This document shows positions 1 to 19,328 of a stretch of DNA of 29,859 nt, one piece after another (the first letter of the stretch is position 1; every line of letters starts with the position of its first letter). The translations under genes were made by a program, and so were the position numbers. The notes under the pieces were generated by a model. That model ran no database searches. It had not been told where the DNA came from and saw only the letters and a list, made by a program, of their open reading frames with translations. The stretch comes from Chitinophagales bacterium (GTDB taxonomy: Bacteria; Bacteroidota; Bacteroidia; Chitinophagales; Chitinophagaceae), in NCBI GenBank assembly GCA_038241595.1, contig JBBSSY010000001.1, forward strand, positions 1-29,859. Direction: 5' to 3'.

Positions 1-2
1 AA

Positions 3-587
3 GGACTGCACAACGAGGATGAATTACAGGGTTATTTTATAAAACGCGTCGAGAAATACCTGCTCGCCCACAACAAAAAATTATTGGGTTGGGATGACAT
101 AATGGACGGTGGCGTGGCACCTACGGCGACCGTGATGAGCTGGCGCGGCGAGAAAGGAGGCATAGCAGCCGCTAAACAGGGCCATCAGGTAATTATGTCG
201 CCAAGCAATCCGCTGTACTTTAACAGGTACCAGGCCGATCCTGAGCATGAACCGCTGGCGGCCAGCTTTTCGATTAATACGCTGGAGCGGGTGTACCAAT
301 ACGATCCTCAGCCAAACGCACTTACCGACCGGCAAAAGCAATTTATTATTGGCGGGCAGGCTGCCATCTGGACCGAATTCGTTTCATCGGTGGAGCACCT
401 GGAATACATGCTCCTGCCACGGTTGCCGGCCATAGCCGAAGCGTTATGGACACCATTGGAAAAGAAATTATTTACCGGCTTCGTTGATCGCCTTAATCGA
501 TGGCATTTTGACGCATGGCAGCAAAAAGGCATCCGTTTTCATCCGGGCTATTTTACCAGCCGAACCCATGAGGGAAACAGGAAATAA
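3..587 (+). CDS. GH20 beta-N-acetylhexosaminidase, C-terminal part (5' truncated by window edge)
   Basis: Frame 3 is open from base 3: GLHNEDELQGYFIKRVEKYLLAHNKKLLGWDDIMDGG..VMSWRG..LYF..YQ..GGQAAIWTEF..EYMLLPRLPAIAEALW, the GH20 catalytic-barrel C-terminal half. It is collinear with the GH20 at 15116. Confidence 0.93.
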   Translation, partial: GLHNEDELQGYFIKRVEKYLLAHNKKLLGWDDIMDGGVAPTATVMSWRGEKGGIAAAKQGHQVIMSPSNPLYFNRYQADPEHEPLAASFSINTLERVYQYDPQPNALTDRQKQFIIGGQAAIWTEFVSSVEHLEYMLLPRLPAIAEALWTPLEKKLFTGFVDRLNRWHFDAWQQKGIRFHPGYFTSRTHEGNRK

Positions 588-623
588 GGGAAGGGAGCAT
601 TGCAAAATATAAAACGGTATTCT

Positions 624-2165
624 ATGCAAGTAAAAAAGACATGGTCATCAGTGGTAACCATCTGTATGATGTGGGCGATTTGCTCAAATGCAACTGCCCA
701 ACAGGAGCGGCCAAATATTATTTTGTTTTTGGTTGATGATATGGGGTGGATGGATACCTCTGTTCCGTTTGGCGATAGTATGATGCCCTTGAACAAACGC
801 TACCATACGCCCAATATGCAACGCCTGGCAAACGAAGGCATGAAGTTTACCAGTGCCTACGCCGCGCCGGTTTGCACACCCACAAGGGTAAGTTTGCTTA
901 CTGGATTAAACGCAGCCCATCATGGCGTAACCAATTGGACAAGCCCGCAAAAAAATAATTCTACCGACCACCCCGACGACCAGTTTATTGCCGCCAACTG
1001 GAATATAAATGGTTTGTCCAATTCAACCAAAACGCCCCGCACCGTTTATGCTACTACTTACCCGCAACTATTAACGCAGGCGGATTACTACACCATCCAT
1101 GTAGGCAAAGCGCATTGGGGCTCCGCCGGTACACCAGGCGCCAATCCCCATAACCTGGGCTTTATGGTAAATATTTCTGGCCATGCCGCCGGTCACCCGC
1201 AAAGCTACCTGGCTACGGACAACTATGGCAACAAGCCTGGTAAGGCCACTGCCCAGGCTGTTCCCGATCTTGAAGAATATTACGGCACCGATACCTTTTT
1301 AACCGAAGCGCTTACCCTGGAGGCCATCAAAGCGCTTGAAACGCCCATCAAACATAAACAGCCATTCTACTTGAACATGTCGCATTATGCGGTGCACATT
1401 CCTATAATGGCCGATAAACGATTTGTTCAAAAGTACTATGATGCGGGACTCGATTCAACCGAAGCGGGCTACGCCAGTCTGTTAGAGGGAATGGATAAAA
1501 GCCTGGGCGACATTATGGACTTCCTGCAAGCCAAAGGCATAGAAAAGAATACCATCATTATTTTTATGAGCGATAATGGTGGACTGAGTTACGCGCCTCC
1601 GCGCGGCGGTAAACCGCATACACAAAACCTGCCGCTGAAGGCTGGTAAAGGATCGGTTTACGAGGGTGGCATCCGTGAGCCAATGATTGTGAAATGGCCG
1701 GGCGTTGTGAAGCCTGCTTCCATATCGCTACAGCCGGTGATTGTGGAAGATTTCTTTCCGACAATATTACAGATGGCTGGTATCAGCAACTATAAATCGA
1801 TACAAAAAATAGATGGCGAAAGCTTTGTGGCTATCTTGAAAAACAACCGCTATCTGGATTCGATGCGAACCTTTACGTGGCATTTTCCCAACAAATGGCA
1901 GCCGCAGGATGGTCCGGGCATTAACTACAAATCTGCCATCAGGCAGGGCAACTGGAAGCTTATTTACAACATGCGAGACGGCAGCAAAGAGCTGTACAAC
2001 CTTGCCGCCGACCTGGGCGAAAGCAACGAGTTGTCTAAGCAGTATCCGCAAAAAGTGGCTACTCTTGGTAAGCTGCTTGCTGATAAATTAAGAAAATGGC
2101 AGGCACCAATGCCGCTGTTTAAAATCAATGGCAAACCGGTGCCCTTTGCAGATGAAGTACACTAA
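624..2165 (+). CDS. S1 family sulfatase (Cys-type, CxPxR), Sec-exported; possibly S1_16-like (unverified)
   Basis: RPNIILFLVDDMGW metal motif, CTPTRVSLLTG signature, GKAH, SHYAVH, FMSDNGG and YEGGIREP. Signal peptide ends NATA-QQ. ATG at 624 preferred over TTG at 600. Confidence 0.93.
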   Translation: MQVKKTWSSVVTICMMWAICSNATAQQERPNIILFLVDDMGWMDTSVPFGDSMMPLNKRYHTPNMQRLANEGMKFTSAYAAPVCTPTRVSLLTGLNAAHHGVTNWTSPQKNNSTDHPDDQFIAANWNINGLSNSTKTPRTVYATTYPQLLTQADYYTIHVGKAHWGSAGTPGANPHNLGFMVNISGHAAGHPQSYLATDNYGNKPGKATAQAVPDLEEYYGTDTFLTEALTLEAIKALETPIKHKQPFYLNMSHYAVHIPIMADKRFVQKYYDAGLDSTEAGYASLLEGMDKSLGDIMDFLQAKGIEKNTIIIFMSDNGGLSYAPPRGGKPHTQNLPLKAGKGSVYEGGIREPMIVKWPGVVKPASISLQPVIVEDFFPTILQMAGISNYKSIQKIDGESFVAILKNNRYLDSMRTFTWHFPNKWQPQDGPGINYKSAIRQGNWKLIYNMRDGSKELYNLAADLGESNELSKQYPQKVATLGKLLADKLRKWQAPMPLFKINGKPVPFADEVH

Positions 2166-2222
2166 AGCTTGAATGTCAATGTTAAGAAAGCACACCATAA
2201 CCCGTTAAAACAATAGTCAATT

Positions 2223-3737
2223 ATGAAAGCAATAATGGTCGTATCGATGATTTTGGCATCGTACATCGCAGCAGCCCAGCAACGGCCCAACATCGTCATC
2301 ATCGTTTCCGACGATCATGCCTATCAGGCCATCAGCGCCTATGGCAGCAAGCTGATGCAAACACCGGCCATTGATCGCATTGCCAAAGAAGGCGTCATTT
2401 TAAAAAAGGCTTATGTTACCAATTCGATCTGCGGTCCCAGCCGGGCAGTCTTATTAACAGGTAAGTACAGCAATAAAAACGGGTTTAAAGACAATGAGCA
2501 TTCCCGCTTTGATGGCAACCAGGATTCGTTTATCAAGCAACTGCGGAGCAGCGGCTACACCACCGCGTGGATAGGCAAGTGGCACCTGGAAACCAAACCG
2601 CAGGGCTTTGACTTTTGGCAGATATTGCCCGGCCAGGGACAGTATTACAATCCCGATTTTATCATGATGGACAGCAGCATCAAGCGTATCGACGGCTATG
2701 CCTCCAACGTTATAGAAGACGTCGCAGAAAACTGGCTGGACAAGCGCGAGGAAAGCAAACCATTTTGCCTGGTAATCGGGCACAAAGCCACGCACCGTAC
2801 CTGGATACCCGACACCGAAGACATGGGCCTGTTCGATAAGGTTACTTTTCCATTGCCGCCAAATTTTTATGATAATTACGCCGGTAGAGAAGCGGCAAAA
2901 GTGCAGGACATGACCATCGCCAAAACCTTAATTATGGGTTACGACCTAAAAATGTTCGACAGCGACGCGGCGGCGGATAAAGAAGGAGGTGTCAAGAGAA
3001 TGAACCCTGCGCAACGGGCAAAGTTCGATGCGTACTACAAGCCAATATATGCGGATCTGAAAGCCCGCAACTTAACCGGCAACGCCCTTACGGAATGGAA
3101 GTTTCAACGCTACATGCGGGATTACCTGAGTACCGCCGCCTCGCTCGACCGCAACATTGGCCGCACCCTTGAATATCTAGACAAACACCAGCTTGCAAAA
3201 AACACCATCGTCATTTACCTGTCCGACCAGGGATTTTTTATGGGTGAACATGGCTGGTTCGATAAGCGTTGGATGTATGAAGAATCGTTCCGTACGCCCA
3301 TGGTAATGCGGTACCCCGGCGTAATCAAACCCGGTACGGTCAGCAACGATTTTGTGATGAATCTTGACATCGCGCCAACCGTGCTGGATGCGGCCGGTGT
3401 TGCTATTCCACAAGACATGCAAGGCCAGTCGATGCTGCCTGTTCTCAACAAAACCGCGAAGGGCCGCGACGTGATGTATTATCATTATTACGAGAATGGC
3501 GAGCATGCGGTGTCGCCGCAATTTGGCATTAAAACGAAGCGCTACAAACTCATTCGTTTTTACAAAAGGGTCAACAGTTGGGAGATGTACGACTTGCAAA
3601 AGGATCCGCATGAAATGCACAACCTGTACGGCAAAAAAGGGTATGAACAGGTTACAGGCGATCTGCACAAACAGTTATTGCAGACTATTGATAAGTACGA
3701 AGACGACGATGCCAGGCAGGTATTAAACAGTAAGTAA
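2223..3737 (+). CDS. S1 family sulfatase (Cys-type), S1_11/mucin-desulfating GlcNAc-6-sulfatase-like
   Basis: RPNIVIIVSDDH, TNSICGPSRAVLLTGKYS, GKWHL, HKATHR, SDQGFFMGEHGWFDKRWMYEES. Signal peptide ends AAA-QQ. Confidence 0.92.
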   Translation: MKAIMVVSMILASYIAAAQQRPNIVIIVSDDHAYQAISAYGSKLMQTPAIDRIAKEGVILKKAYVTNSICGPSRAVLLTGKYSNKNGFKDNEHSRFDGNQDSFIKQLRSSGYTTAWIGKWHLETKPQGFDFWQILPGQGQYYNPDFIMMDSSIKRIDGYASNVIEDVAENWLDKREESKPFCLVIGHKATHRTWIPDTEDMGLFDKVTFPLPPNFYDNYAGREAAKVQDMTIAKTLIMGYDLKMFDSDAAADKEGGVKRMNPAQRAKFDAYYKPIYADLKARNLTGNALTEWKFQRYMRDYLSTAASLDRNIGRTLEYLDKHQLAKNTIVIYLSDQGFFMGEHGWFDKRWMYEESFRTPMVMRYPGVIKPGTVSNDFVMNLDIAPTVLDAAGVAIPQDMQGQSMLPVLNKTAKGRDVMYYHYYENGEHAVSPQFGIKTKRYKLIRFYKRVNSWEMYDLQKDPHEMHNLYGKKGYEQVTGDLHKQLLQTIDKYEDDDARQVLNSK

Positions 3738-3746
3738 ACCGGATGC

Positions 3747-3772
3747 ACACGTATAGACTGCGTGTCTTTTTT
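3747..3772 (+). terminator. Weak intrinsic terminator-like hairpin
   Basis: ACACGTA-tagac-TGCGTGT (7 bp, one G-U pair) followed by C and T6. Confidence 0.4.
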
Positions 3773-3799
3773 AATCACAAAATATAAAACTAAACAGCA

Positions 3800-6700
3800 A
3801 TGAGAAAGATAATTACAAGACTTATGCTTTGCATGTTGCTAAGTATATGCATGGCGGTGGCTATGGCCCAGCAAAAAAAGATTACAGGAACCGTCAAAGA
3901 CGATAACGGCAATCCTTTAATCGGCGCAACTTACCATGTAAAGGGTACAAACATCAATGGCGCCACCGATAGTAACGGAAATTTTTCGATAACGGTAAAT
4001 GGGGCAAATGCAGTACTGGAATTCACGACGGTAAACTTTGTCGCTAAAGAAGTACAAGTTGGTAACAGCAACATTTTACATGTGGTTTTATCAGCCAGCA
4101 ACAACAAACTGGACGAGGTAGTGGTTACGGCTTTTGGGGTGGGCAAGCAAAACAAAAAGCTTGGCTATGCCGTCACCACCATAAAGGGAGAAGATATTAC
4201 CCGAACAAATACTGTTAACCCAATTACTGCCTTACAAGGCAAGGTGGCTGGTGTGAATGTAAATGTTATGTCGGCAAGTGGTGTTCAAACATCTCCATTT
4301 ATTCAAATCAGGGGTTCTAAAGTTTTAGGAAAACCCGGCCAAAACTCCAACCAGCCAATTTTTGTGATTGATGGAAACGTATTGGAGAACAACACTTTTG
4401 ATGCGGATAACGCTGATGGCGGTTCGCAATTAAAAAATCTTAATCCGGATGATTATGAAGCCATCACGGTTTTAAAAGGCGCCGCGGCAACATCGGTTTA
4501 TGGTTCGCGTGGCATCAATGGCGCGATAGTAATTACCACAAAAAAGGGGAAAGCGGGCCAGGGTTTGGGCGTTGAATTTAACAGCACTTATTCAAACCAG
4601 CATATATACAAAGCTCCGATGGCTTACCAAAATACCTACGGCCAGGGCAGCTGGTCTGCCGCCGAAGGTAACTTCAGGCCCGACGGTACCGTGATTCAGA
4701 CTATGGGAAGTTGGGGTACGAAAATGGACGGTAGTTTGCACCCGGCTGTGTCTAATTTCGACAAAAAGGTTCCGTATTCACCACAACCCGATAACTGGAA
4801 AGTGTTTTATCAGGATGGAGCCTATATAAATAACAACCTGGCGTTGACAGGTGGTACGGAAAAATTTGGCTTTCGCATGTCGTATTCCAACAACCAGGCA
4901 ACCGGTACCCTGCCCAATAACGCTATGACAAGAAATGCTGTTGATTTAAAGATGAATGGCCAGTTAAATAAAGTGTTTTCAACCGAGTTGGGTGTTTCTT
5001 ATGCAAACACGGTGGCGCGTAACTTTTATTCACAAGGCCGTTACTATTTCGGCGGTGGCCAAAATCTCGGTTTCAATACGTATTATCTGCCGCGTAATAT
5101 AGATACCAAAGACTGGTATGCTACGTACAGGGCTGCAGATAATACTCCGGACTTGATCCATGCTTATGGGAACCTGTCAGCAGTGGTGAACGCATTTTCA
5201 AGATTTGATAAAAATAATTATTACCGTTACGAAAATTCTGTATTGGCCTACACCCAATTAAAAGCGCAGGTAGCTCCCTGGTTGGATTTTTCGGCAAGAG
5301 CCAACGTCAACTATTACAAAATATTTACAGAAGAAAAAAACCTGGGCAATGAGAAAGCTAACCGCGGCGGATATTACAGCGTAGGGGGCAACTATTCAAA
5401 CGATTACACTTTATTGTTCATGGGTCATGCCACCAAAGCGTTCAATGACGATTTTTCTGCTGATTTCAGGGTTATAAATGAAGTATATGGAAACAGGCAG
5501 GGGGAATCGTACAGTGCCAGTTCCAATGGTGGGTTAAGTGTTCCCAACCAGTTTTTTCTTGGCAATTCAGTTAACAACATACAAAACAACATCAAGTACG
5601 GCTACACAAAACCCTCCCGGCTAACCGTTGGTTTAGCAGGTATTTTAAACCTGAACTATAAACGATATCTAAATCTTGAAATCACAGGACGTAACGATTG
5701 GTTAAGTACCCTTACGTATCCCTACGCGGTCATTGGCGGGAATAACAATTATACGGTGTTTTACCCTTCGGTAAATGCTTCCTATTCTTTCGTCGACCAT
5801 TTTGCTGACGATATGCCAACCTGGTTGTCCTCCGGCAGGCTAAGGGCATCTCTTGCCTATGTAGGTAACTCCGGCATTGCCGGCGCTTATGCCACCGGTA
5901 GCGGTTATGTACCTGCCACTACTTACAATCAAAACGGACAATCGGTTGGATTGGCCACTCAATACAGAGCCAACATCAAACCCAATCTTAATCTGAAACC
6001 ACAGGTGCAGCGTTCTATAGAGCTTGGTACCAACTTCGGTTTGTTTAAGGAAAAGGTAAATGTGGATTTTGCATGGTACAAAACCAATACTTTCGACCAG
6101 TTGCTCGAATTGGGTGGTGTACCCGAAACCGGTTACAATACCATGTTTGTAAACGCAGGTAACATTCAAAACAAGGGCTGGGAATTGTTGGTAAATTATT
6201 CGCCCATACGCCAAAAGGATTTTGGTCTTGACCTGTCGGTGAACATGGCAAGCAATAAAAGTAAAATCATTGAATTTGGTAATGGCATTAAGCAATGGGA
6301 GCTGAGCGGCGGTTATGATGGCGCCAATGTATACGCCTATGAGGGCGGTGCCTTCGGAATTCTTACTTCAGAATCATCGGCTTCTGTTAAACACGATTCT
6401 AAAACGGGTTTCCCTTTGGTAACAGTTGGTGGCCGCAATGTAAACACCAATGCGTTGGATAAAAGAGATTTTCAATTATACGAATACGTTTCCAATACAG
6501 ATGCTGACGGCGCTGCACAAATCGGAAAAATTGAACCAAGCCTGACGGGTGGTGTAAGTGCTACGCTACGCTATAAAAACTTCTCCTTGTTTACACAGGT
6601 TGATGGCAGGTTTGGCGGCTGGGTATATTCCGAAGCATTGAACTATGCCATGGCACAGGGAACGCCTGAAGCATCATTGCAATGGCGCGACCAGGAGCAT

Positions 6701-7189
6701 GGTGGCGTTCAACGAATAGACTCATACAACGGTGCAAAAAGATATGACGGCGCCCTGCCAAACGTTGTATTTGCCGAGGGTCAGGTGAGCAAGATACGGC
6801 CAGGTGTCAGTGTTGCGGGAATGACTTTTAAAGAAGCATACGACCAGGGATTGGTGGAACCCTGGAAAGCGTCAGCCTATTATGTTTATTCATTTGGTTT
6901 TGGTACCAACATCAATAGCGTAAACAACATAAGCACCGCCAAAAATTCGTGGGTGATGATGCGTGAGGTGACCTTGGGATACAAACTGCCTGTTGGGGTA
7001 CTCGGTAAAACATTTTTAAGAGGTGCGCGGTTTAGCTTATCAGCCCGCAACATTGGTTACTTGTACAAAACATTGCCAGGCGGTCAAAACCCCGAGGCAC
7101 TGCAAAGTAACGACCCTTTCCGCCCCTACATCACCGGTGGTGTACCCTTTACGCGTAATTACGCCGCAACCATTAACATATCACTCTAA
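3800..7189 (+). CDS. susC: SusC/RagA TonB-dependent transporter (no STN domain)
   Basis: CarboxypepD_reg-like N-domain (ITGTVKDDNGNPLIGAT), LDEVVVTAFG, plug motif NPDDYEAITVLKGAAATSVYGSRGINGAIVITTKKG, beta-barrel C-terminus; adjacent susD. Confidence 0.97.
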   Translation: MRKIITRLMLCMLLSICMAVAMAQQKKITGTVKDDNGNPLIGATYHVKGTNINGATDSNGNFSITVNGANAVLEFTTVNFVAKEVQVGNSNILHVVLSASNNKLDEVVVTAFGVGKQNKKLGYAVTTIKGEDITRTNTVNPITALQGKVAGVNVNVMSASGVQTSPFIQIRGSKVLGKPGQNSNQPIFVIDGNVLENNTFDADNADGGSQLKNLNPDDYEAITVLKGAAATSVYGSRGINGAIVITTKKGKAGQGLGVEFNSTYSNQHIYKAPMAYQNTYGQGSWSAAEGNFRPDGTVIQTMGSWGTKMDGSLHPAVSNFDKKVPYSPQPDNWKVFYQDGAYINNNLALTGGTEKFGFRMSYSNNQATGTLPNNAMTRNAVDLKMNGQLNKVFSTELGVSYANTVARNFYSQGRYYFGGGQNLGFNTYYLPRNIDTKDWYATYRAADNTPDLIHAYGNLSAVVNAFSRFDKNNYYRYENSVLAYTQLKAQVAPWLDFSARANVNYYKIFTEEKNLGNEKANRGGYYSVGGNYSNDYTLLFMGHATKAFNDDFSADFRVINEVYGNRQGESYSASSNGGLSVPNQFFLGNSVNNIQNNIKYGYTKPSRLTVGLAGILNLNYKRYLNLEITGRNDWLSTLTYPYAVIGGNNNYTVFYPSVNASYSFVDHFADDMPTWLSSGRLRASLAYVGNSGIAGAYATGSGYVPATTYNQNGQSVGLATQYRANIKPNLNLKPQVQRSIELGTNFGLFKEKVNVDFAWYKTNTFDQLLELGGVPETGYNTMFVNAGNIQNKGWELLVNYSPIRQKDFGLDLSVNMASNKSKIIEFGNGIKQWELSGGYDGANVYAYEGGAFGILTSESSASVKHDSKTGFPLVTVGGRNVNTNALDKRDFQLYEYVSNTDADGAAQIGKIEPSLTGGVSATLRYKNFSLFTQVDGRFGGWVYSEALNYAMAQGTPEASLQWRDQEHGGVQRIDSYNGAKRYDGALPNVVFAEGQVSKIRPGVSVAGMTFKEAYDQGLVEPWKASAYYVYSFGFGTNINSVNNISTAKNSWVMMREVTLGYKLPVGVLGKTFLRGARFSLSARNIGYLYKTLPGGQNPEALQSNDPFRPYITGGVPFTRNYAATINISL

Positions 7190-7208
7190 TTATTTTCAAT
7201 TTAAGACA

Positions 7209-9032: not shown

Positions 9033-9148
9033 TCGTATCACAGGCCTGTATCCATCAATAGTAGGAAGATGACGATTAATAAAAGCTTTTAACGACTAAC
9101 AAACCAGGCAACAGCAGGATTCTTTGATAAAATTTAAGAACTGAAAAG

Positions 9149-10657: not shown

Positions 10658-10819
10658 GGCAGAGGTTTCTTCTTGCAGTTTACACAGTTTAGTAAGTGAT
10701 CAAAGAAATGAAATGGACTTCGGAGGCCGATGACAACGCGAAAGACTTGATGGATAAAAAAGCCAGTTCAGAGGCATTAAGTTCAAATGACAATTAACGC
10801 GAACACACATCAGATTGGT

Positions 10820-10927
10820 ATGAATCAAAATGACTACCTGATCCTTTTTCTTTTGTCTCTGATATGCTGTAAAAGGATTTCGGCACAAACGACTACCAAT
10901 CAGATCGATTCTCTGCCTTTCAAGTGA
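10820..10927 (+). pseudogene. Signal-peptide-only mini-ORF, possible relic of a deleted exported-enzyme gene
   Basis: MNQNDYLILFLLSLICCKRISAQTTTNQIDSLPFK*: hydrophobic core and an SA-Q cleavage site like the neighbouring enzymes, then a stop 12 codons later. Confidence 0.35.
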
Positions 10928-11029
10928 ATATAGCCAACGATTTATAATTGATTGGTATCATCGGCTTAAAAAATGATAAAGCAATCAACATACGGTAAAT
11001 AATATATTACCGGCAAAAGCTTTTTATCA

Positions 11030-12940
11030 ATGAAAAAATTCATTTTTATCGTTCTGTTTTTTGTTGCGCTTTGTACACATGCCGCTGATACGCTGCACGT
11101 GGTCACCCATAAAAAGGAAACCATTGTTACCGATCCGGTGCATGGTTTTAATGAATATAAAAGATGGGGCGTGTTTCCGTCACGTGCAACGCCGGTACGA
11201 AAAATTATGCTGAAGGTGCAATTTGCCTGTCCTGAAAACATGCGCTGTGCCGATTGGGATTACAATGACCATATCACCATCAGAAGGAGAGGCGGCTTGC
11301 ATGGCGCATCCCAGGATTATGAGATTGGCCGCATGCTTACGCCCTATGGTGGAGCGTTTGCGAAAGACTGGACGTTTAACTGGGAAGTAGATGTGACCGA
11401 CTTCAGTATGCTGCTGCGCGATAGCATCGAAATTGGCTATAATCATACCGGTTATGAACCCAACAACGATCGTGGATGGGCCGTAACCCTCGATTTTGAA
11501 ATCATCCAGGGAACACCCGCATGGGAGCCCATCAGCATACAAAAAATTTATGAAAACAGTTATCGCTATGGCGACAGCAGCAAGCCGATTGAAGATGAAT
11601 TGACGCCTGTAACCTTTACAGCGGCACAGGGCGCAGACTTTGCCCGGTTGCGAATTTTGCAAACAGGCCATGGCATGGACCGCCCCGATGGATGCGGCGA
11701 ATTTTGCAATAAGTACCGGCAGGTAATTTATGATGGAAAGCTGATCGATACCCGGTCGATTTGGAAAGTGTGCGGCGATAACCCGTTGTATCCGCAGGCC
11801 GGCACCTGGATATATGACCGCGCCAACTGGTGCCCCGGCAATTTAATGCAGCCCGATATTTTCAACCTGCCGGTTGCCAGGGGTGGCGAACATACGATCG
11901 ATGTAAACATGCAACCCTACGTGTCGATAAAGCCATCGGCGGATGAAGTAATAGCTGCCTATTTAATTCAGTACAAAAAAGCGGCAGAAAAAAATGATGT
12001 GGCGCTGCTGGATATAATTAGCCCAACCATAAAAGATGCCTTCCGCAGGTACAATCCATCGGTTAAACAGCCGACCATTATCGTGAAAAATGTTGGTGCT
12101 GCCAATATAAAAAGCATGCACGTTAATTACGGATTAGCGGGATCAAACAAAAAAAATTACCAGTGGACGGGCAACCTGGCGCCATTTGCCTCGGACACTG
12201 TTATACTTCCGGGCACTATCGAAACCAGGAAACGTCGTGACCAGTTTGAAGTGGCGTTGTTGAAGCCGAATGGAAAAAAAGACGGCTATGATGCCGACAA
12301 CAAAATGACAAGCTGGTTCGACGCCGTGTCCCGGCAAGACTCTACACTCATTGTGTACCTGAAAACAAACAACCAGCCTTCGCAGACTGCCTATGTGTTA
12401 AAGGATGCCAATGGAAACGTGGTGCAGCAACGATCGCTTGGTTCGTTGGCAGCAAACACGGTATACCGCGATACGGTGAACCTTGCTGAAGGCGGTTATC
12501 GTTTTACATTAATGGACAGCGCCGACAATGGACTTGAATTTTGGGCCAATGCCAGGGGCGGCAGCGGAAGGGCAAGATTGCTTAATAAAAAGGGCGAGAT
12601 CATCCAGTATTTTGAATCAGACTTTGGAAAATTTATTCAATATGATTTCATGGTAGGCAGGCCTGTAACACCGGTTGCGGCTGTCAATTCGTTTGGGCTT
12701 TATCCAACAAGAACGAAAGATAATACAACCCTTGATTACTATGGCAATGTCCCTGCTGAAGTAAAGGTGCAAATCCTGACAGATCCGGGAGAAAAGATAG
12801 TGGAGGAACATACGTACAGCGACCTTACTGAAGGTGTGTTTACGTACGACCTCAGTCGTTTTCCCAAAAGCCGGTTCTACTTGAAAGTGCTTATAAATGG
12901 CGAAGAAAAATTCAAAAAACGAGTTCGGTTAAAAGAATAG
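11030..12940 (+). CDS. Peptide-N-glycosidase F (PNGase F)-family protein with Ig/CARDB-like domains and a T9SS-like C-terminal domain
   Basis: Motifs CPENMRCADWDY, EIGRMLTPY, DVTDFSMLL, TGHG, GCGEFC and DRANWCPG match the PNGase F motif order (CDEWDR, EIARFITPY, DVTDF, GWGH, GCAEWC, DRAGWCPG). Has a Sec signal peptide. Confidence 0.88.
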   Translation: MKKFIFIVLFFVALCTHAADTLHVVTHKKETIVTDPVHGFNEYKRWGVFPSRATPVRKIMLKVQFACPENMRCADWDYNDHITIRRRGGLHGASQDYEIGRMLTPYGGAFAKDWTFNWEVDVTDFSMLLRDSIEIGYNHTGYEPNNDRGWAVTLDFEIIQGTPAWEPISIQKIYENSYRYGDSSKPIEDELTPVTFTAAQGADFARLRILQTGHGMDRPDGCGEFCNKYRQVIYDGKLIDTRSIWKVCGDNPLYPQAGTWIYDRANWCPGNLMQPDIFNLPVARGGEHTIDVNMQPYVSIKPSADEVIAAYLIQYKKAAEKNDVALLDIISPTIKDAFRRYNPSVKQPTIIVKNVGAANIKSMHVNYGLAGSNKKNYQWTGNLAPFASDTVILPGTIETRKRRDQFEVALLKPNGKKDGYDADNKMTSWFDAVSRQDSTLIVYLKTNNQPSQTAYVLKDANGNVVQQRSLGSLAANTVYRDTVNLAEGGYRFTLMDSADNGLEFWANARGGSGRARLLNKKGEIIQYFESDFGKFIQYDFMVGRPVTPVAAVNSFGLYPTRTKDNTTLDYYGNVPAEVKVQILTDPGEKIVEEHTYSDLTEGVFTYDLSRFPKSRFYLKVLINGEEKFKKRVRLKE

Positions 12941-13067
12941 TTTCGTCATTTGTGCATAACAGATAGCACTGTTTAATCCAGACAGCCCGGGATACTTCTG
13001 GGTCATTCGCTGTGGCAATGCAACGTTTGGATTGAGTGATGATTAGTTTCCTATTAAAAGTTATAAT

Positions 13068-15095
13068 ATGAAGTATTTACTGGGTTTTCTCGTTTGCATG
13101 AGTATGGCATCTTTCGCCTTTGGCCAACGTGATACCATTGCCTTAAATGTGGATTGGCGGTTTGTTATCGACAAGACAGGGGAGGGGATGGGCCAGCAAT
13201 GGTTTAGCAAAGAACTGGCCGGTTCAAAGGAGGTGCAATTGCCGCATACCTGGAACATCGAACCCAATAATCAAAATCATTATGGTTGGGGATGGTACCA
13301 GAAGAAAATAGCCGTACCTGCCCAATGGAAGAGCAAGAACGTCGTGCTGCAGTTTGGCGCCGTAAACCACACCTCGTATGTTTATGTGAACGGCGTACAG
13401 GTGACCGAAAATATCGGCGACGGGTTCAATAAATTCTTTGTGAACCTTACCGGGCTATTGGCATATGGCAAAGACAACATTATTACCGTGGCGGTTAACA
13501 ACGACTATGGCAGGAACAAGGTGCCTTTTGGTTCGTCGTTCGACTGGCCAAATGATGGTGGAATCATTCGACCTGTTGCGATGATAGTGAGCAACAAGCC
13601 TGCAGCCAATTACGTGCACATAACCCCCCGGTTAAACCTGGTAAACAACGAAGGTGAACTGCAGGTTACACTGGGCTTCGATAAACAGGGGAAAAAGTCA
13701 TTAAAACTGGCTGTGACCATTACGGAAGAAAACCAGCCAACCCATCATGTGGTTCTTACAAAAACATCAACACCTGTTTGGCAAGATGCCGAAGCAACGG
13801 TAAATTTTGTTTTGCCAACAGTTAATCCGTGGCATTTCGATTTCCCCAATTTGTACCGGGTGGATGTAGTGGTTATTGATGGAAACAAGGCGGTTGACAG
13901 GCTTAGTGCCAACATAGGCTTCAGGCAAATAAAATTCATAAATGGACAAACGTTTTTGAACGGGGAAAGGGTTAAACTGATGGGTGTGGAGTGGACGGCT
14001 GGATCGAACCCTGATTATGGCTTTGCCGAAACTGATTCTATCATCATTAGCCAGGGAAAACTGATGAAAGACGTAAATGCCATCTTTACCCGTCAGCATT
14101 TTCAGCAGTCGGATGTGTTCTACGATTTCTGCGACCGCAATGGAATTATTGTTCAGCAGGAAGTGCCATTGTGGGGCCCTGAAACGCCCGCGAATGATAC
14201 CATTCAACGCATAGCGATGTCGCAACTACAGCGGATGATCGGCAATAACTACAACTACACCAGCATTTTTGCATGGGGTGTGGGCAATGAGTTGAGGGGC
14301 AGATCGGCAGATATTAAAAAGATGATCACCGCGCTGATAGCACGGGCAAGATCGTTGGATAGCTCCAGGATGGTTGCCTATGTAAGCAACACACTTACCC
14401 AGAACTTTTATAATGATCCACACTTTTCACCCGACGCGGCCAATGATGGCGACTTTATTATGATGAATGAATATGGCGGAAGCTGGTGGGCCATCCCCAC
14501 AGGAAAGATCCACAATTACCTGGACAGTGTGCACATGAGCTATCCTGATAAGCCATTCTTTATTTCCGAGTTTGGCTTGTGTGCCCCAAATTTTAGAGGT
14601 GGCGACGAAAGAAGATTGCAGGACCTCATCTATCACATGGCGATTTATGAAACCAAGCCCTATGTAGAAGGGGCTATTTACTTCGATCTGACCGACTACC
14701 GCACCCACTACCCCGGCACGTTAGAAAACGACAAGTTCAGAAGGCGTATCCATGGCGTGTACGATATGTATGGCAAGCCAAAACCATCTATGAAGGTGTT
14801 GCGCGAAATGTCGTCGCCTGTTGAAGTGCAGCAAATGATACGAAAGGGTAAAGACAAGTCAGGCGTTCTGATATTTGGTAATATCGGCTTACCACAGCAT
14901 GCGGTCAGCGGTTATAAATTATACCTGTCAGATAAATTGGACAATTATTTAGACTCAAAAGCCTATAACATTCCTGTGTTGCAACCGGGCCAACGCGTAA
15001 CGATTGATGTTGATGATCCGTTTGATGCAAAAGGAATTTTAACTGTTGTTCGTCCAAACGGTTATGTTGTTTCACAAAAATCATTTGCAGAGTAA
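13068..15095 (+). CDS. GH2 glycoside hydrolase, specificity unclear
   Basis: Sugar-binding domain (LPHTWN, WYQKKI, FGAVNHTSYVYVNG, GGIIRPV), W..DFPNLY, IGFRQI; putative acid/base WGVGNE (E408) and nucleophile ISEFG (E501). Confidence 0.92.
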   Translation: MKYLLGFLVCMSMASFAFGQRDTIALNVDWRFVIDKTGEGMGQQWFSKELAGSKEVQLPHTWNIEPNNQNHYGWGWYQKKIAVPAQWKSKNVVLQFGAVNHTSYVYVNGVQVTENIGDGFNKFFVNLTGLLAYGKDNIITVAVNNDYGRNKVPFGSSFDWPNDGGIIRPVAMIVSNKPAANYVHITPRLNLVNNEGELQVTLGFDKQGKKSLKLAVTITEENQPTHHVVLTKTSTPVWQDAEATVNFVLPTVNPWHFDFPNLYRVDVVVIDGNKAVDRLSANIGFRQIKFINGQTFLNGERVKLMGVEWTAGSNPDYGFAETDSIIISQGKLMKDVNAIFTRQHFQQSDVFYDFCDRNGIIVQQEVPLWGPETPANDTIQRIAMSQLQRMIGNNYNYTSIFAWGVGNELRGRSADIKKMITALIARARSLDSSRMVAYVSNTLTQNFYNDPHFSPDAANDGDFIMMNEYGGSWWAIPTGKIHNYLDSVHMSYPDKPFFISEFGLCAPNFRGGDERRLQDLIYHMAIYETKPYVEGAIYFDLTDYRTHYPGTLENDKFRRRIHGVYDMYGKPKPSMKVLREMSSPVEVQQMIRKGKDKSGVLIFGNIGLPQHAVSGYKLYLSDKLDNYLDSKAYNIPVLQPGQRVTIDVDDPFDAKGILTVVRPNGYVVSQKSFAE

Positions 15096-15115
15096 TCAGT
15101 TCAAAATCAAATACC

Positions 15116-17413
15116 ATGAAAAAAATTACCATGATACTGCTTGTATCGGTTGTCTCCGCTGCAGTGTTTGCCCAGGCAACTAACTCAATCATTCCCCGCC
15201 CGGTTTCCATTCAAATGGGAGCGGGCAGTTTTGTTGTCGATAACAATACGGGAATCCAATTCAATTCTGCACAAAAATTATTGAAGAACGCGGCTGATTT
15301 TATGGCCGCACATATCAAACAAATAAGTGGCTACAGCCTTCCCATAAATGGCAGCAAAGCCAAAACGATCGCCTTAAAAATTGGTAAGGTCGCTGCTATT
15401 GGCGATGAAGGGTATGAGTTGAATGTGTCACCAAAGCACATAATTATTTCGGCAAATACCACGGCGGGAATCATTTACGGCATGCAGTCGTTGTTCCAAA
15501 CACTTCCGCAGGTCCGTACCAACGAATCGCTGCAAATTCCGGCCATGCAGGTAACCGATTATCCCCGTTTTCCATGGAGAGGAATGCACCTGGATGTGAG
15601 CCGTCATTTTTTTCCCCCGTGGATGATCAGGGAATATATTGACCTGATGGCTTCCTATAAATTAAATACTTTTCATTGGCATTTGGTTGACGACCAGGGA
15701 TGGCGGATAGAAATAAAAAAGTATCCGCTGCTTACAAAAGTGGGTGCCTGGCGGGTAGATAAGCTCGACCAGGTTTGGAGTCAGCGCCCGCAGGCCATCG
15801 AAGGGGAACAAGCCAATTATGGTGGCTATTACACGCAGGAGCAAATTAGGGACATCATTCAATATGCCGCCCAACGAAACATAAACATAATTCCAGAAAT
15901 CGAGATGCCGGGACACGTCGCCTCGGCCATAGCGGCTTATCCATTTTTAAGCTGCACGCAAAAACCGCAACTTCCGTTAACCGGCGGCAACTACACCAAT
16001 ATGTCGTCAAACTATTGTGCCGGCAACGATTCTGTTTTTACTTTTCTTCAAAATGTCTTAACAGAAGTAATAGATCTCTTTCCTTCAAAATTAATACATA
16101 TTGGCGGCGATGAGGTAGACAAAGGCCCCTGGAAAGTTTGCCCTAAATGCCAGGCACGTATAAAAGCCGAAGGGCTGCACAACGAAGATGAATTACAGAG
16201 CTATTTTATCAAGCGCATTGAAAATTTTGTTGAAAGCAAGAAAAGGAAAATTGTAGGCTGGGATGAAATACTGGAAGGTGGATTGGCTCCTTCGGCAACG
16301 GTAATGAGCTGGCGCGGTGAAGCTGGCGGGATAGAAGCTGCCAAAATGCACCATGATGTGGTGATGACCCCCGGTACTCCCTTGTATTTTGACCATTACC
16401 AGGCCGGCCCTGAAGGTGAACCGTTGGCAATCGGTGGCATGAACACCTTAAAAAGTGTGTATGAATATAATCCCATACCGAAGGAATTAACTGAGGGCGA
16501 GGCGAAGTATGTGTTGGGTGCCCAAGCCAATGTATGGACGGAATACATCCTTACTCCGGCAGGCCTGGAATATATGGTTTTACCCCGTATGCTTGCGTTG
16601 GCCGAAGTGGTTTGGAGTCCGCCTGCTGTCAAAGATTTTAATGACTTCAACAAGCGCCTGCAGTATCACTTCAAAGGCTTCGATCAAAAAGCACTGAACT
16701 ACAGCAAGGGCAATTTCACCGTGGCCATTAAACCGGTGTCCGCCAATGGTAAATTGCAGGTGGCACTATCCACCGAAGCGCTGAATGGCGAGATATTCTT
16801 CACGACCGATGGCCGTACCCCCACCATCGAAAGTACCCAATACACACAGCCGTTCACCATCGATTCGTCGGTGGTAATAAAGGCGGTCACTGCGGTAAAA
16901 GGATCGGTGCTTGGCCTGGTGCCGGCACAGCAAAGTTTCGTGGTTCACAAAGCGCTGGGCAAAAATGTAACCTATCAAAATCCGGCAAGCCGTTACTATC
17001 TTGCCGATGGTCCCAATTCGCTTACGGATGGCGTCAGGGGAACCAAAGCGGTTGGCAAATACTGGCACGGCTTTTCTGCAAAAGATATGATTGCCACCAT
17101 TGATTTGGGCGAAGAAAAAAGTGTCCAGTCAATTGGCCTCGGTTGCCTGCAAAATTATAGCGACTGGATATTTTTGCCTGCATCCGTAAAATTTGAAAGT
17201 TCAAATGATGGTAAAAATTTTACCGAATTGAGTACGGTTGACAACCCGGTGCCGGTCAACGAAAAATCTGCGTTGCATGATTTCGTAAGTGAATTTCCGG
17301 CTAAAAATGTGAGATACATTCGTGTTACAGCAAAAAACGGACTGTGCCCGGCGGGCCATCCGGGTGCCGGTAAACCCGCCTGGATTTTTGCCGATGAAAT
17401 TGTGGTCAGATAA
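15116..17413 (+). CDS. GH20 beta-N-acetylhexosaminidase with GH20b, chitobiase/Fn3-like and F5/8-like domains
   Basis: DYPRFPWRGMHLDVSRHF, FHWHLVDDQGWR, PEIEMPGH, catalytic HIGGDE, GWDEI; FTTDGRTPT and LTDGVRG/IDLGE C-terminal modules. Confidence 0.96.
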   Translation: MKKITMILLVSVVSAAVFAQATNSIIPRPVSIQMGAGSFVVDNNTGIQFNSAQKLLKNAADFMAAHIKQISGYSLPINGSKAKTIALKIGKVAAIGDEGYELNVSPKHIIISANTTAGIIYGMQSLFQTLPQVRTNESLQIPAMQVTDYPRFPWRGMHLDVSRHFFPPWMIREYIDLMASYKLNTFHWHLVDDQGWRIEIKKYPLLTKVGAWRVDKLDQVWSQRPQAIEGEQANYGGYYTQEQIRDIIQYAAQRNINIIPEIEMPGHVASAIAAYPFLSCTQKPQLPLTGGNYTNMSSNYCAGNDSVFTFLQNVLTEVIDLFPSKLIHIGGDEVDKGPWKVCPKCQARIKAEGLHNEDELQSYFIKRIENFVESKKRKIVGWDEILEGGLAPSATVMSWRGEAGGIEAAKMHHDVVMTPGTPLYFDHYQAGPEGEPLAIGGMNTLKSVYEYNPIPKELTEGEAKYVLGAQANVWTEYILTPAGLEYMVLPRMLALAEVVWSPPAVKDFNDFNKRLQYHFKGFDQKALNYSKGNFTVAIKPVSANGKLQVALSTEALNGEIFFTTDGRTPTIESTQYTQPFTIDSSVVIKAVTAVKGSVLGLVPAQQSFVVHKALGKNVTYQNPASRYYLADGPNSLTDGVRGTKAVGKYWHGFSAKDMIATIDLGEEKSVQSIGLGCLQNYSDWIFLPASVKFESSNDGKNFTELSTVDNPVPVNEKSALHDFVSEFPAKNVRYIRVTAKNGLCPAGHPGAGKPAWIFADEIVVR

Positions 17414-17457
17414 CCGGATCGGTTCCGCGTTATAATAAGAATTAATAACCGCTTTTT

Positions 17458-18477: not shown

Positions 18478-18498
18478 AAGAATAAGTATTTGATAGGC

Positions 18499-19206: not shown

Positions 19207-19320
19207 ATCAGTACTATGTGGTAAATAATGGGTTTAGCATAATAAAAATATTAATATCTGTTAAGGAAGAATGCCTTAACCACGACAGCTGAAATGCTAC
19301 GCTTAAATGATACGGAATGC

Positions 19321-19328
19321 CAAAGATA
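19321..19328 (-). promoter_or_regulatory. Bacteroidota sigma-A -7 element for the gntR-lacI operon
   Basis: Minus strand TATCTTTG matches TAnnTTTG. TCTG (near the -33 TTTG consensus) lies 20 nt upstream at 19352-19349. Confidence 0.55.

Follow-up and report, generated by a model that had tools for sequence, protein, structure and literature searches.

A conserved gene cluster of a soil Chitinophagales bacterium predicted to serve the utilisation of sulfated, fucosylated N-glycans

Gene content and layout of the locus

The analysed window (G000:C1:1-29859, 29.9 kb) is the beginning of a contig of a Chitinophagales MAG, and sequences located 5' of the locus thus lie outside the contig. Pfam domain scans, carried out on every ORF of at least 100 aa in the whole window, revealed nine co-oriented genes on the + strand (Table 1). 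The susC and susD genes are flanked by seven co-oriented enzyme genes, the organization expected of a PUL. The scans agree with the original prediction of one co-oriented run encoding, around susC/susD, a PNGase F-family protein, two sulfatases, two GH20, a GH29 and a GH2. They also agree on the enzymes said to be missing, as no domain of GH18, GH85, PL, GH33 or GH92 was detected anywhere in the 29.9 kb. The first gene is truncated by the contig start; the encoded GH20 fragment shares 87% identity with the end of a GH20 of 591 aa from the Chitinophagaceae MAG G001, and a search of the assembly did not recover the missing N-terminal half. Two soil metagenome studies contain 0.88 and 0.41 of the sampled words of the 9149-15095 region, and the former may be the source sample.

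Table 1 Features of the locus and of its immediate downstream flank.
Feature	Position	Strand	Evidence
GH20 beta-hexosaminidase, C-terminal 194 aa, truncated by contig start	3..587	+	PF00728 1.8e-38
S1_16-like formylglycine sulfatase, signal peptide	624..2165	+	Sulfatase and SGSH_C domains; ORF from TTG 600, likely ATG 624
S1_11-like sulfatase, signal peptide	2223..3737	+	Sulfatase and SGSH_C domains
7-bp hairpin followed by CTTTTTT	3747..3765	+	pattern match, -7.1 kcal/mol
SusC-type TonB-dependent transporter without STN domain	3800..7189	+	Plug and CarbopepD_reg_2 domains
SusD-like_2 lipoprotein	7209..9032	+	PF12771 7e-42, PF12741 2e-30
GH29 subfamily B alpha-L-fucosidase with F5/8 type C domain, signal peptide	9149..10657	+	4ZRX 1.8e-167
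Extra intergenic DNA (about 313 nt) absent from G001	10654..11003	.	blastn colinearity and sequence
Predicted PNGase F-like amidase, 636 aa, signal peptide	11030..12940	+	N-glycanase_C; 1PNF 1e-16
GH2 (GUS/beta-galactosidase-like clade), signal peptide	13068..15095	+	GH2 N, middle and TIM-barrel domains
GH20 beta-hexosaminidase with CHB_HEX_C and F5/8 type C domains, signal peptide	15116..17413	+	PF00728 2.7e-122
LacI-family candidate regulator, convergent with the PUL	17458..18477	-	LacI and Peripla_BP domains

Intergenic gaps measure 12 to 127 nt, except for the 372 nt ahead of the PNGase gene. About 313 nt of this gap are an insertion missing from G001, the closest relative, in which the gap measures 38 nt. 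The insertion contains two tiny ORFs, one of which is signal-peptide-like, and could be the site of a separate promoter for the PNGase, GH2 and GH20 genes. Judging from its sequence, the hairpin followed by a T-run, located between susC and the preceding sulfatase genes, might act as an intrinsic terminator or attenuator. The TAnnTTTG motif is absent from every intergenic gap of the locus. Taken together, these features leave room for separate transcription units: the description of the genes as one co-oriented run is correct, and the run may comprise more than one operon. No HTCS, ECF/anti-sigma or ROK genes were found within positions 3-17413, and the only candidate regulator is the convergent LacI gene downstream. 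An orthologue of the latter (59% identity) is found three genes away from a PNGase orthologue in Paracnuella aquatica (L029), but the gene is missing from the corresponding position in G001.

The PNGase F-like protein and the associated enzymes

The PNGase F-like protein, encoded by a single-copy gene, aligns in phmmer searches with 1PNF (1e-16) over residues 48-279 (chain residues 32-265), a region spanning both sandwiches of PNGase F. The AF2 model (pLDDT 82) features the two eight-stranded antiparallel beta-sandwiches of PNGase F and matches 1PNF in Foldseek (2.7e-14, target-normalised TM 0.70), with an identity in the structural alignment of 23% only. According to the HMMER alignment, residues D60, E206, R248 and W251 of PNGase F correspond to D77, E224, R264 and W267, and W76-D77, E224, R264 and W267 are invariant across 22 homologues of 53-81% identity. 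R264 and W267 are located in a loop modelled at a pLDDT below 50, and the active-site loop 246-271 is of low confidence. In the same HMMER alignment E118, W120 and W191 of PNGase F are not kept, being replaced by His139, Gly141 and His214; H139, G141, E143 and H214 are invariant within the 22 homologues. The changes at E118 and W120 and the poorly modelled loop 246-271 suggest that the substrate range may differ from that of PNGase F. Predicted fold and aligned catalytic residues make the protein a credible N-glycan amidase, as originally proposed; homologue and literature searches returned no characterised member of this clade.

The catalytic part, extending approximately from residue 20 to 320, starts directly after the signal peptide, and the N-terminal bowl-like (NBL) domain is absent. 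Scores obtained with type II PNGase (2e-7) and 7ZGN (8e-6) are weaker than that obtained with type I PNGase F (1e-16). G388 of the Bacteroides massiliensis enzyme B035DRAFT_03341 presumably occupies the position of E118 of PNGase F. Matches to 4R4X and 7ZGN span residues 192-294 only and leave uncovered the region of G388, a small residue that opens space for alpha-1,3-fucose (PMC9522356). The catalytic part is followed by two beta-sandwiches and by a last beta-sandwich (residues 553-636) that weakly resembles a T9SS CTD (PF18962, 18.2 bits vs a cut-off of 27, profile positions 1-73 of 75). This domain is missing from the results of a six-frame genome scan that recovered 17 bona fide T9SS CTDs, and its counterpart sits internally in PNGase~GH29 fusion proteins. 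The C-terminal PF18962 match, being sub-threshold, does not support assignment as a type A T9SS cargo.

The classes of the two sulfatases are based on motifs and on similarity to characterised sulfatases. The S1_16-like protein is similar over its full length to 7OZA (BT3796; 6e-177) and carries the FGly motif CTPTR at residue 92. The critical stacking W109 and the O3-coordinating W431 of BT3796 have equivalents in its TNWT and PNKW motifs (chain numbering +4), and the position of W332 is occupied by Pro. W109 and W431 define 4S-Gal/GalNAc activity in BT3796 (10.1101/2021.07.23.453482), and the protein is predicted to be an exo 4-O-sulfo-Gal/GalNAc sulfatase. The S1_11-like protein, which matches 7P24 (2.8e-163) and the N-acetylglucosamine-6-sulfatase 5G2V (2.9e-148) and carries the FGly motif CGPSR at residue 70, is predicted to be a 6-O-sulfo-GlcNAc exo-sulfatase. 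The genome encodes five FGE-domain genes and about 25 sulfatase-domain genes; with this number, a sulfatase in a 20-kb window is not rare on its own. S1_11 orthologues (71-73%) are found in the Pontibacter PNGase PULs L021 and L026. S1_16 orthologues occur in 10 of 400 other genomes, and none of the nine loci fetched has an adjacent PNGase gene, which indicates that the S1_16-PNGase link is particular to this lineage.

The GH29 protein is most similar to GH29-B enzymes, such as the alpha-1,3/4-fucosidase AfcB (3UES, 3e-134), 6ORG (1e-105) and 3EYP (8.5e-101), and matches GH29-A structures at 1e-21 or weaker. The greater similarity to AfcB, SpGH29 and BT2192 places it in subfamily B. GH29-B is the Lewis-type alpha-1,3/4 class, and antennary fucose is therefore at least as likely a target as core fucose. 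The best PDB matches of the GH2 protein reach only about 1e-39 (BuGUS-2-like), and none of the NCBIfam GUS or galactosidase models scores near its own cut-off. The protein has the catalytic motifs NE and SEFG. The HMMER alignment with BuGUS-2 stops short of the N-x-K carboxylate-binding region, where the protein reads, by eye, RRRIHG in place of the GGNKKG of E. coli GUS.

Recurrence of the locus in other genomes

The order of the nine genes is repeated in G001 (L009), with about 83% nucleotide and 79-91% protein identity, and is partly present in L005 and L008. The arrangement is thus not due to chance. SusC is 91% identical to its L009 counterpart and 81% identical to the SusC adjoining the PNGase orthologue in L007. 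The SusC/SusD pair is 79-81% identical to a Flavisolibacter pair encoded next to the PNGase orthologue; the N-glycan PUL concerned additionally encodes an Asparaginase_2 (glycosylasparaginase), a GH92, two GH29, a GH27 and a GH95. The sole SusD orthologue (79%) detected among 300 sampled genomes of the class is encoded directly upstream of a PNGase orthologue (G064). Orthologues of the other enzymes are similarly placed. GH29 orthologues (69-85%) adjoin PNGase orthologues in L005, L007, L009, L026, L029 and L030, and GH2 orthologues in L008, L009 and L012; orthologues of the complete GH20 (56-86%) are found in PNGase loci L005, L009, L012, L025, L033 and L034.

Neighbours were counted in 80 PNGase-family loci of the genome collection. 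SusC genes were found in 27 loci, GH29 in 29 (8 as PNGase~GH29 fusion proteins), ROK in 14, GH20 in 13 and GH33 in 10. Neighbours specific to the N-glycan core include GH92 (5), GH125 (4), beta-mannosidase-like GH2 (3) and glycosylasparaginase (2, plus L007). About half of the family members lie outside any recognisable PUL. Of the 59 loci of at least 15 kb, 13 have a sulfatase gene no more than 10 kb away from the PNGase gene. These sulfatases belong to at least five groups, including S1_11, S1_16, S1_15 and S1_19-like, and the loci are found in Chitinophagaceae, Mucilaginibacter, Pontibacter, Echinicola and Saprospiraceae. Literature searches found no paper on a PNGase-plus-sulfatase PUL, in line with the statement in the original prediction that none was known.

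Possible substrates and comparison with known systems

The locus is a real, conserved cluster and a predicted variant of known N-glycan utilisation loci. We favour, with a probability of about 0.6, a PUL for sulfated, fucosylated complex-type N-glycans carrying LacNAc, LacdiNAc or polyLacNAc-like antennae, the core of which would be degraded by enzymes from other parts of the genome. The analysis shows the gene content and synteny of the locus, the fold and catalytic residues, and a genomic association that recurs; from these we infer the specificity of every enzyme, the order of the steps, the compartment of each enzyme and their co-regulation. The PNGase F-like amidase would cleave the GlcNAc-Asn bond of glycoproteins or glycopeptides, and SusC/SusD, co-inherited with the PNGase across genera, would import the released glycan, or a glycopeptide if the PNGase is periplasmic. 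After import, the antennae would be trimmed by the exo-enzymes, which carry signal peptides and are presumably periplasmic. The S1_16-like sulfatase may take 4-O-sulfate off terminal Gal/GalNAc and the S1_11-like sulfatase 6-O-sulfate off GlcNAc; the GH29-B may remove alpha-1,3/4 fucose (Lewis-type, possibly core alpha-1,3), the GH2 probably beta-galactose, and the two GH20s beta-GlcNAc/GalNAc. Degradation of the Man3GlcNAc2 core could be completed by GH92 and further enzymes from outside the window, where the genome has two GH92 and two Asparaginase_2 genes.

The original prediction of a PUL for sulfated, fucosylated N-glycoproteins thus stands in part. The fold and residues of the PNGase, its linkage to SusC/SusD, the predicted sulfatase activities and the recurrence of PNGase-sulfatase loci speak for it, but the exo-enzyme set is not N-specific. 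S1_11, S1_16, GH20, GH2 and GH29-B, as well as the nearby GH35, belong to classes that Bacteroides employs on mucin O-glycans and keratan (PMC7419316; 10.1101/2021.07.23.453482). The S1_11/S1_16/GH20/GH2/GH29-B set is just as characteristic of loci for mucin O-glycans and keratan sulfate, and cannot separate N- from O-linked antennae. Hence the cluster could be a general PUL for sulfated (poly)LacNAc of animal glycans, mainly mucin-type O-glycans or keratan sulfate, with the PNGase as an accessory acting on an N-linked, KS-I-like fraction, or as a passenger; we consider this rather unlikely. The region upstream of the locus, where GH18 or PL genes had been named as signs of a GAG or mucin target, could be inspected in G001. 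It carries neither, as expected under the original prediction, but the G001 locus opens, directly upstream, with a lipoprotein GH16. The best solved match of this protein is 6T2R (5e-65), a polyLacNAc/keratan-active endo-beta-galactosidase, ahead of laminarinases (4e-49), and its orthologues (56-61%) in PNGase PULs of Pontibacter and Rufibacter are neighbours of S1_15 and S1_11 sulfatases. This candidate shifts the target towards sulfated (poly)LacNAc, either N-linked (KS-I-like) or O-linked. The GH16 is, however, located outside the window, may be a galactosidase or a laminarinase, and has no close copy in the assembly of the window (best 33%). Moreover, no O-glycan-specific enzyme (GH101, GH129, GH84/89 or M60-like peptidase) was found in the window or in the G001 flanks, and the SusC/SusD pair accompanies the PNGase gene into PULs with N-glycan core enzymes.

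A specialisation for invertebrate-type N-glycans with core alpha-1,3-fucose and sulfated LacdiNAc, which would involve a fucose-tolerant PNGase and a core fucosidase GH29, is improbable. Soil offers insect, nematode and mollusc glycoproteins, GH29 is tightly linked and sometimes fused to this PNGase family, E118 of PNGase F is replaced by His139, and the G001 locus also contains a GH109. A B. massiliensis GH29 preferring Lewis x-like Fuc-alpha-1,3-GlcNAc is a core alpha-1,3-fucosidase (PMC9522356), and a review (PMC10154615) states that CAZymes acting on such non-classical N-glycans have yet to be discovered. The protein lacks, however, the NBL domain common to the two known alpha-1,3-fucose-tolerant enzymes of the family (PNGase F-II/group-2) and scores better with type I PNGase F; the GH29 is a generic GH29-B, and no enzyme specific to invertebrate decorations was identified. 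In addition, PNGase relatives of 62-66% identity are found in nine Pontibacter loci and in Mucilaginibacter L014 within PULs that encode a sialidase, a sialate O-acetylesterase and a GlcNAc-2-epimerase, which suggests sialylated, vertebrate-like complex N-glycans. A link to invertebrate glycans specifically, raised in the original prediction, finds no support. Still less probable is a mosaic of independently transcribed units (GH20-sulfatase, SusCD-GH29 and PNGase-GH2-GH20) without a shared substrate. The hairpin and the insertion-bearing gap described above would suit such units, accessory genes are exchanged (LacI-GntR-GH35 in the window, GH109-GH20-sigma/FecR in G001), and S1_16 orthologues elsewhere have unrelated surroundings, for example an AraC-sulfatase-MFS operon. 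All nine genes nevertheless keep their order in G001, where GH29 and PNGase are closely spaced. GH20, GH2, sulfatase, PNGase, GH29 and SusCD modules recur jointly in a member of another family, Mucilaginibacter arboris (L012), and S1_11 orthologues recur in Pontibacter PNGase PULs.

The preferred reading, a PUL for complex-type N-glycans, can be compared with several known systems. The PNGase F-like protein shares the two eight-stranded sandwiches and the D60/E206/R248/W251 equivalents with the type I PNGase F of Elizabethkingia meningoseptica (1PNF/1PNG/1PGS) and with BF0811 of B. fragilis (group 1; 3KS7), but differs from both in about 320 extra C-terminal residues and in the His/Gly/His found at E118/W120/W191. 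The sulfatases show full-length similarity (E 1e-163 to 1e-177) and the CxPxR motif in common with BT3796/BT3057 (S1_16, 4S-Gal/GalNAc) and BT3177/BT4656 (S1_11, 6S-GlcNAc) of B. thetaiotaomicron. All of these B. thetaiotaomicron enzymes were studied in a gut symbiont on sugars derived from mucin O-glycans and GAGs (Luis et al., 10.1101/2021.07.23.453482), whereas those described here are encoded in a PNGase PUL of a soil bacterium.

In the B. thetaiotaomicron complex N-glycan apparatus, the GH18 BT1044 acts with multiple co-regulated loci (Briliute et al. 2019, as cited in PMC10570127 and PMC10154615). As proposed for the present locus, the apparatus takes released complex N-glycans across the outer membrane by SusC/D and then trims them with GH2/GH20/GH29-type exo-enzymes. 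Release is by a GH18 ENGase, with GlcNAc staying on the protein, and the described loci have no sulfatases; in the present locus, an amidase would perform this step, and sulfatases are encoded alongside it. A further system is that of B. massiliensis for plant/insect N-glycans, in which the PNGase B035DRAFT_03341 is accompanied by GH92, GH29, GH3, GH2 and GH20 (Crouch et al. 2022, PMC9522356). The keystone of release would in both cases be a PNGase F-family amidase, in place of a GH18 ENGase, with linked SusC/D, GH29, GH2 and GH20. The B. massiliensis PNGase belongs to group 2 (type II) and has a bowl-like domain at its N-terminus, whereas the protein described here combines a type-I-like catalytic part with three extra beta-sandwiches. 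An uncharacterised sulfatase is found in one functionally associated locus of the B. massiliensis system (PMC9522356); in contrast, the present soil host has no GH92 or GH3 in the PNGase-SusC/D locus and carries two sulfatases inside it.

Gene content and conservation of the locus

ORF listing and Pfam scans of the window returned the same gene inventory as the original prediction, with all nine genes on the plus strand, and Pfam found no GH18, GH85, PL, GH33 or GH92 domain in the whole window. Each enzyme carries an N-terminal signal peptide, and the N-terminus of SusD is lipobox-like.

Genes of the PUL and of the adjacent region, with window coordinates
Feature	Position	Strand	Basis
GH20, C-terminal fragment	3-587	+	Pfam
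Sulfatase (first, S1_16-like)	600/624-2165	+	Pfam
Sulfatase (second, S1_11-like)	2223-3737	+	Pfam
SusC	3800-7189	+	Pfam
SusD-like_2	7209-9032	+	Pfam
GH29 with F5/8-C domain	9149-10657	+	Pfam
PNGase-like, 636-aa protein with N-glycanase_C domain	11030-12940	+	Pfam
GH2	13068-15095	+	Pfam
GH20	15116-17413	+	Pfam
LacI-GntR-GH35 block	17458-21363
STN-type SusC	21907-25374
410-aa secreted protein	27103-28335

The window lies at the beginning of contig C1 in a fragmented MAG; the assembly comprises 633 contigs (3.7 Mb) and is 86% complete, and the contig start falls inside the first GH20 gene. The nearest kin of the window proteins are found in Chitinophagaceae MAGs and in Flavisolibacter. Much of the 9149-15095 stretch is present in two soil metagenome studies (0.88 and 0.41 of the sampled words), the first of which may be the source sample; the listing for this stretch includes no RNA data set.

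The syntenic Chitinophagaceae MAG G001 stands in for the DNA upstream of the window, which begins at the contig start. A 445-kb G001 contig (loci L009 and L091-L094) is colinear with window 1-17414 at ~82-84% nucleotide identity, and features the same gene order (GH20, S1_16, S1_11, SusC, SusD, GH29, PNGase, GH2, GH20) at 79-91% protein identity. The right-hand part of the locus is common to the Logan contig L005 and to locus L008. The locus is real and conserved. In G001, a GH16 of 312 aa whose N-terminus is lipoprotein-like is encoded directly 5' of the first GH20, followed further 5' by a divergent NagB/PIG-L fusion, a CBM9 protein and insertion sequences. Upstream GH18 or lyase genes had been named as possible signs of a glycosaminoglycan or mucin target; neither occurs upstream in G001, and the GH16, closest to polyLacNAc-active enzymes, makes the outcome a mixed one. 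The window's own 86%-complete assembly yielded neither the missing half of the GH20 gene nor a close copy of the GH16. IS1595, IS21 (IstA/IstB) and DDE_3 transposase genes flank the PUL region of G001 (L094:84-5444, L093:12227-12907), consistent with a mosaic gene content between relatives.

The intergenic gaps within the nine-gene run range from 12 to 127 nt, but two places stand out. Between the S1_11 gene and susC there is a 7-bp hairpin and then CTTTTTT, and a 372-nt gap precedes the PNGase-like gene, ~313 nt of which (10654-11003) are an insertion relative to G001, where the gap measures 38 nt. This extra DNA, probably what is left of a former gene, includes two tiny ORFs, one of which has a signal-peptide-like sequence. 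Scans of the locus for sigma-70 promoters and terminators performed no better than on shuffled sequence, and the Bacteroidota -7 motif TAnnTTTG is present in none of the intergenic gaps. The co-orientation of the nine genes is therefore certain; their co-transcription is only a possibility, as the hairpin with its T-run, the 372-nt gap and the absence of TAnnTTTG would also suit separate transcription units. The window segment 9060-9227 (the SusD-GH29 gap and the first GH29 codons) resembles the S1_11-susC gap of G001 (G001:C15:154056-154224, 75%) and may reflect an earlier rearrangement or duplication within the locus.

Downstream, convergent LacI and GntR genes separate the PUL from a second locus comprising GH35, STN-type SusC, SusD, the 410-aa protein and GH31. 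In G001, the PUL is followed by GH109, GH20, an ECF sigma factor, FecR and then the STN-SusC; the LacI-GntR-GH35 block occupies the place where G001 and L005 carry GH109-GH20. In Paracnuella aquatica (L029), a LacI orthologue (59%) is encoded close to the PNGase orthologue. At window 21416-21883 (junction ~21880), ~1.85 kb are gone relative to G001, corresponding to the 3' two thirds of the ECF sigma gene and the whole fecR; as this loss lies just 5' of the STN-SusC, the trans-envelope signalling partners are missing here. The 410-aa protein, located between the second SusD and GH31, has no Pfam or NCBIfam match, and its G001 counterpart by position (L093:10282-11895) has a weak DUF4832 match.

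The PNGase-like protein and its genomic neighbourhoods

The PNGase-like gene is single-copy in the genome. Residues 48-279 of its product match PNGase F residues 32-265 (phmmer, 1e-16), whereas type II and group-2 PNGases score far lower, over the second sandwich only. The AF2 model (pLDDT 82) superposes on PNGase F (1PNF) with a TM-score of 0.70. PNGase F residues D60, E206, R248 and W251 correspond to D77, E224, R264 and W267, although the loop bearing the last two (246-271) is modelled at low confidence. These residues are invariant in 22 homologues (53-81% identity), as are His139, Gly141 and His214, which are aligned to E118, W120 and W191. The catalytic part is followed by two beta-sandwich domains and by a last sandwich (553-636), which spans the whole T9SS Por_Secre_tail profile at 18 bits against a cut-off of 27 and was not picked up in a genome-wide scan yielding 17 clear CTDs. 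In P0092, a fusion of PNGase and GH29, the CTD-like domain is internal. For these reasons, T9SS export is not claimed; the enzyme may reside in the periplasm, with imported glycopeptides as its substrates.

Of the 301 genomes sampled from the class, 65 encode homologues of the catalytic domain (E <= 1e-40); the tally includes the unpublished genome G554, on which the statement does not rest. A large, uncharacterised PNGase F-like clade is thus common in the class. In 80 loci from the genome collection, ORFs were called and clustered, clusters were named by Pfam, and neighbours were counted within 10 kb. The PNGase homologue is accompanied by GH29 in 29 loci (8 as PNGase~GH29 fusion ORFs), SusC in 27, SusD in 21, ROK in 14, GH20 and sulfatase in 13 each, GH27 in 11, GH33 sialidase in 10, GlcNAc 2-epimerase and LacZ-type GH2 in 9 each, sialate O-acetylesterase in 7, GH123 and GH92 in 5 each, GH125 and GH109 in 4 each, beta-mannosidase-like GH2 and GH95 in 3 each, and glycosylasparaginase in 2. 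One more glycosylasparaginase is found in the Flavisolibacter locus L007 (SusC-SusD-PNGase-Asparaginase_2-CutC-GH92-GH29-GH29-GH27-GH95), whose SusC and SusD share 81% and 79% identity with those of the window. The N-glycan core is the target of GH92, GH125, beta-mannosidase and glycosylasparaginase, and their proximity to the PNGase genes is taken as the strongest genomic argument that the family acts on N-glycans. About half of the loci lack any PUL context. In a reverse test with SusD, the one orthologue found in 300 genomes is PNGase-adjacent, a single case and too few to count.

The fusion proteins (P0082, P0090-P0095 and P0118, from loci L037, L041, L061, L068, L069, L077, L082 and L086) are ~1105 aa long. 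In P0092, the one examined, a whole 640-aa PNGase-like protein with its CTD-like last domain precedes a GH29-A-like fucosidase that shares only 25% identity with the GH29 of the window.

Sulfatases and accompanying glycosidases

Both sulfatases contain the CxPxR motif, and five FGE-domain genes are present in the genome. The first matches BT3796 (7OZA) over its full length (6e-177) and retains the equivalents of W109 and W431, which are needed for the 4S-Gal/GalNAc activity of BT3796 (Luis et al., 10.1101/2021.07.23.453482), while W332 is replaced. For the second, the matches are 7P24 and 5G2V, both 6S-GlcNAc sulfatases (1e-148 to 1e-163). Sulfatases vary among PNGase loci. In other lineages, S1_11 orthologues (71-73%) occur near PNGase genes in Pontibacter, together with S1_15 (6S-Gal/GalNAc type; 6S20, 8.5e-178), which directly adjoins PNGase in Mucilaginibacter arboris; S1_19-like sulfatases are located directly beside PNGase in four Echinicola species, and two further sulfatase groups also occur near PNGase genes. 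Desulfation thus appears to be a recurrent add-on of these PULs, the particular sulfatase being exchangeable. The reverse search moderates this view: S1_16 orthologues are rare (10 of 400 Bacteroidota genomes), and as none of the nine loci fetched contains a PNGase gene, a general link between S1_16 and PNGase was dropped. The family-level relative carries an AraC-sulfatase-S1_16-MFS operon. Since the genome has ~25 sulfatase-domain genes, a sulfatase gene close by carries little weight on its own.

The GH29 falls into subfamily B (AfcB, 3e-134; also SpGH29 and BT2192), GH29-A enzymes scoring 1e-21 or weaker, and its predicted target is accordingly Lewis-type alpha-1,3/4 fucose. Core activity is also possible, because the core alpha-1,3-fucosidase of B. 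massiliensis is a GH29 with Lewis x preference (PMC9522356). Catalytic NE and SEFG motifs are present in the GH2, which has only distant characterised relatives (~1e-39) and whose orthologues accompany PNGase in L008, L009 and L012. Two GH92 and two Asparaginase_2 genes are located elsewhere in the genome.

The best solved match of the G001 GH16 (L094:9177-10115) is 6T2R (5e-65), ahead of beta-1,3(4)-glucanases (4e-49). The entries 6T2N-6T2S are all polyLacNAc-active GH16 enzymes of Crouch et al. 2020 (PMC7419316), so the designation laminarinase-like was dropped. Their substrate is polyLacNAc, whether in mucin O-glycans or in keratan sulfate, N-linked as well as O-linked; one of them also retains a laminarinase side activity. 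GH16 orthologues (56-61%) are found in the PNGase PULs of Pontibacter ummariensis (L021:17935-18738), P. litorisediminis (L023:19181-20059) and Rufibacter glacialis (L025:20055-20879); in both Pontibacter loci, S1_15 and/or S1_11 sulfatase genes come directly after them. Together with the PNGase, this GH16 looks like a candidate module for the utilisation of N-linked keratan-sulfate-like chains. As the window's assembly lacks a close copy, GH16 bears on the target through relatives only.

Predicted substrate and relation to known systems

The most economical reading, to which we assign a probability of about 0.6, is that the PUL serves sulfated, fucosylated complex N-glycans with LacNAc, LacdiNAc or polyLacNAc-type antennae. 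The PNGase-like amidase would release the glycan, SusC/D would import it, the sulfatases, fucosidase, GH2 and GH20s would trim the antennae, and the core would be finished by genes outside the locus. According to the main rival, which we regard as rather unlikely, the locus in truth targets sulfated LacNAc chains that are O-linked (mucins, KS-II), the PNGase serving the N-linked fraction only. The GH16 of the relatives and the enzyme classes fit this rival and the N-glycan reading alike; N-linked keratan sulfate (KS-I) as a substrate would reconcile the two.

The original prediction, which named invertebrate-type N-glycans as a possible target, is partly supported. An N-glycan target is probable, whereas invertebrate specificity gains no support and, having no positive evidence, is improbable: the protein lacks the bowl-like domain of both known alpha-1,3-fucose-tolerant PNGase F-family members, a bulky His occupies the E118 site, and homologues (62-66% identity) sit in PULs handling sialic acid. 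A mosaic of unrelated units is more improbable still, given the conserved gene order and the presence of these modules in both Mucilaginibacter and Pontibacter. The His at the E118 site, the extra beta-sandwich domains and the frequent fusion or adjacency to GH29 could mark the clade as the keystone of an undescribed environmental PUL class for non-classical sulfated N-glycans (invertebrate or protist sulfated LacdiNAc or N-linked keratan-like chains, possibly with core alpha-1,3-fucose). This is a doubtful proposal, slightly less so than invertebrate specificity; if true, it would be the first dedicated bacterial system for such glycans.

To our knowledge, N-glycan foraging is known almost solely from gut Bacteroides and pathogens, with release mostly by GH18/GH85. 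PULs that handle complex N-glycans through GH18 release are well known, as are host-glycan sulfatases. As originally supposed, no description of a PNGase-plus-sulfatase PUL was found in the literature, nor anything specific on this PNGase clade in Pontibacter, Mucilaginibacter, Hymenobacter, Chitinophagaceae or Pedobacter. The clade is repeatedly tied to SusC/D, fucosidases and N-glycan core enzymes, and in several lineages also to sulfatases and polyLacNAc-type GH16. If the predicted activities are true, soil Bacteroidota mineralise sulfated animal-type N-glycoproteins by an amidase-first route, and the locus would provide a matched set (PNGase, 4S-Gal/GalNAc sulfatase, 6S-GlcNAc sulfatase, fucosidase and hexosaminidases) for sulfated N-glycan analysis, a field in which the need for tools has been stated (PMC8379841, PMC10570127). 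According to a review, enzymes for non-classical N-glycans have yet to be discovered (PMC10154615). In the PNGase-keystone N-glycan systems of gut Bacteroides, a sulfatase, not studied there, belongs to a functionally associated locus (PMC9522356), whereas here two sulfatase genes and the PNGase-like gene are part of the same PUL.
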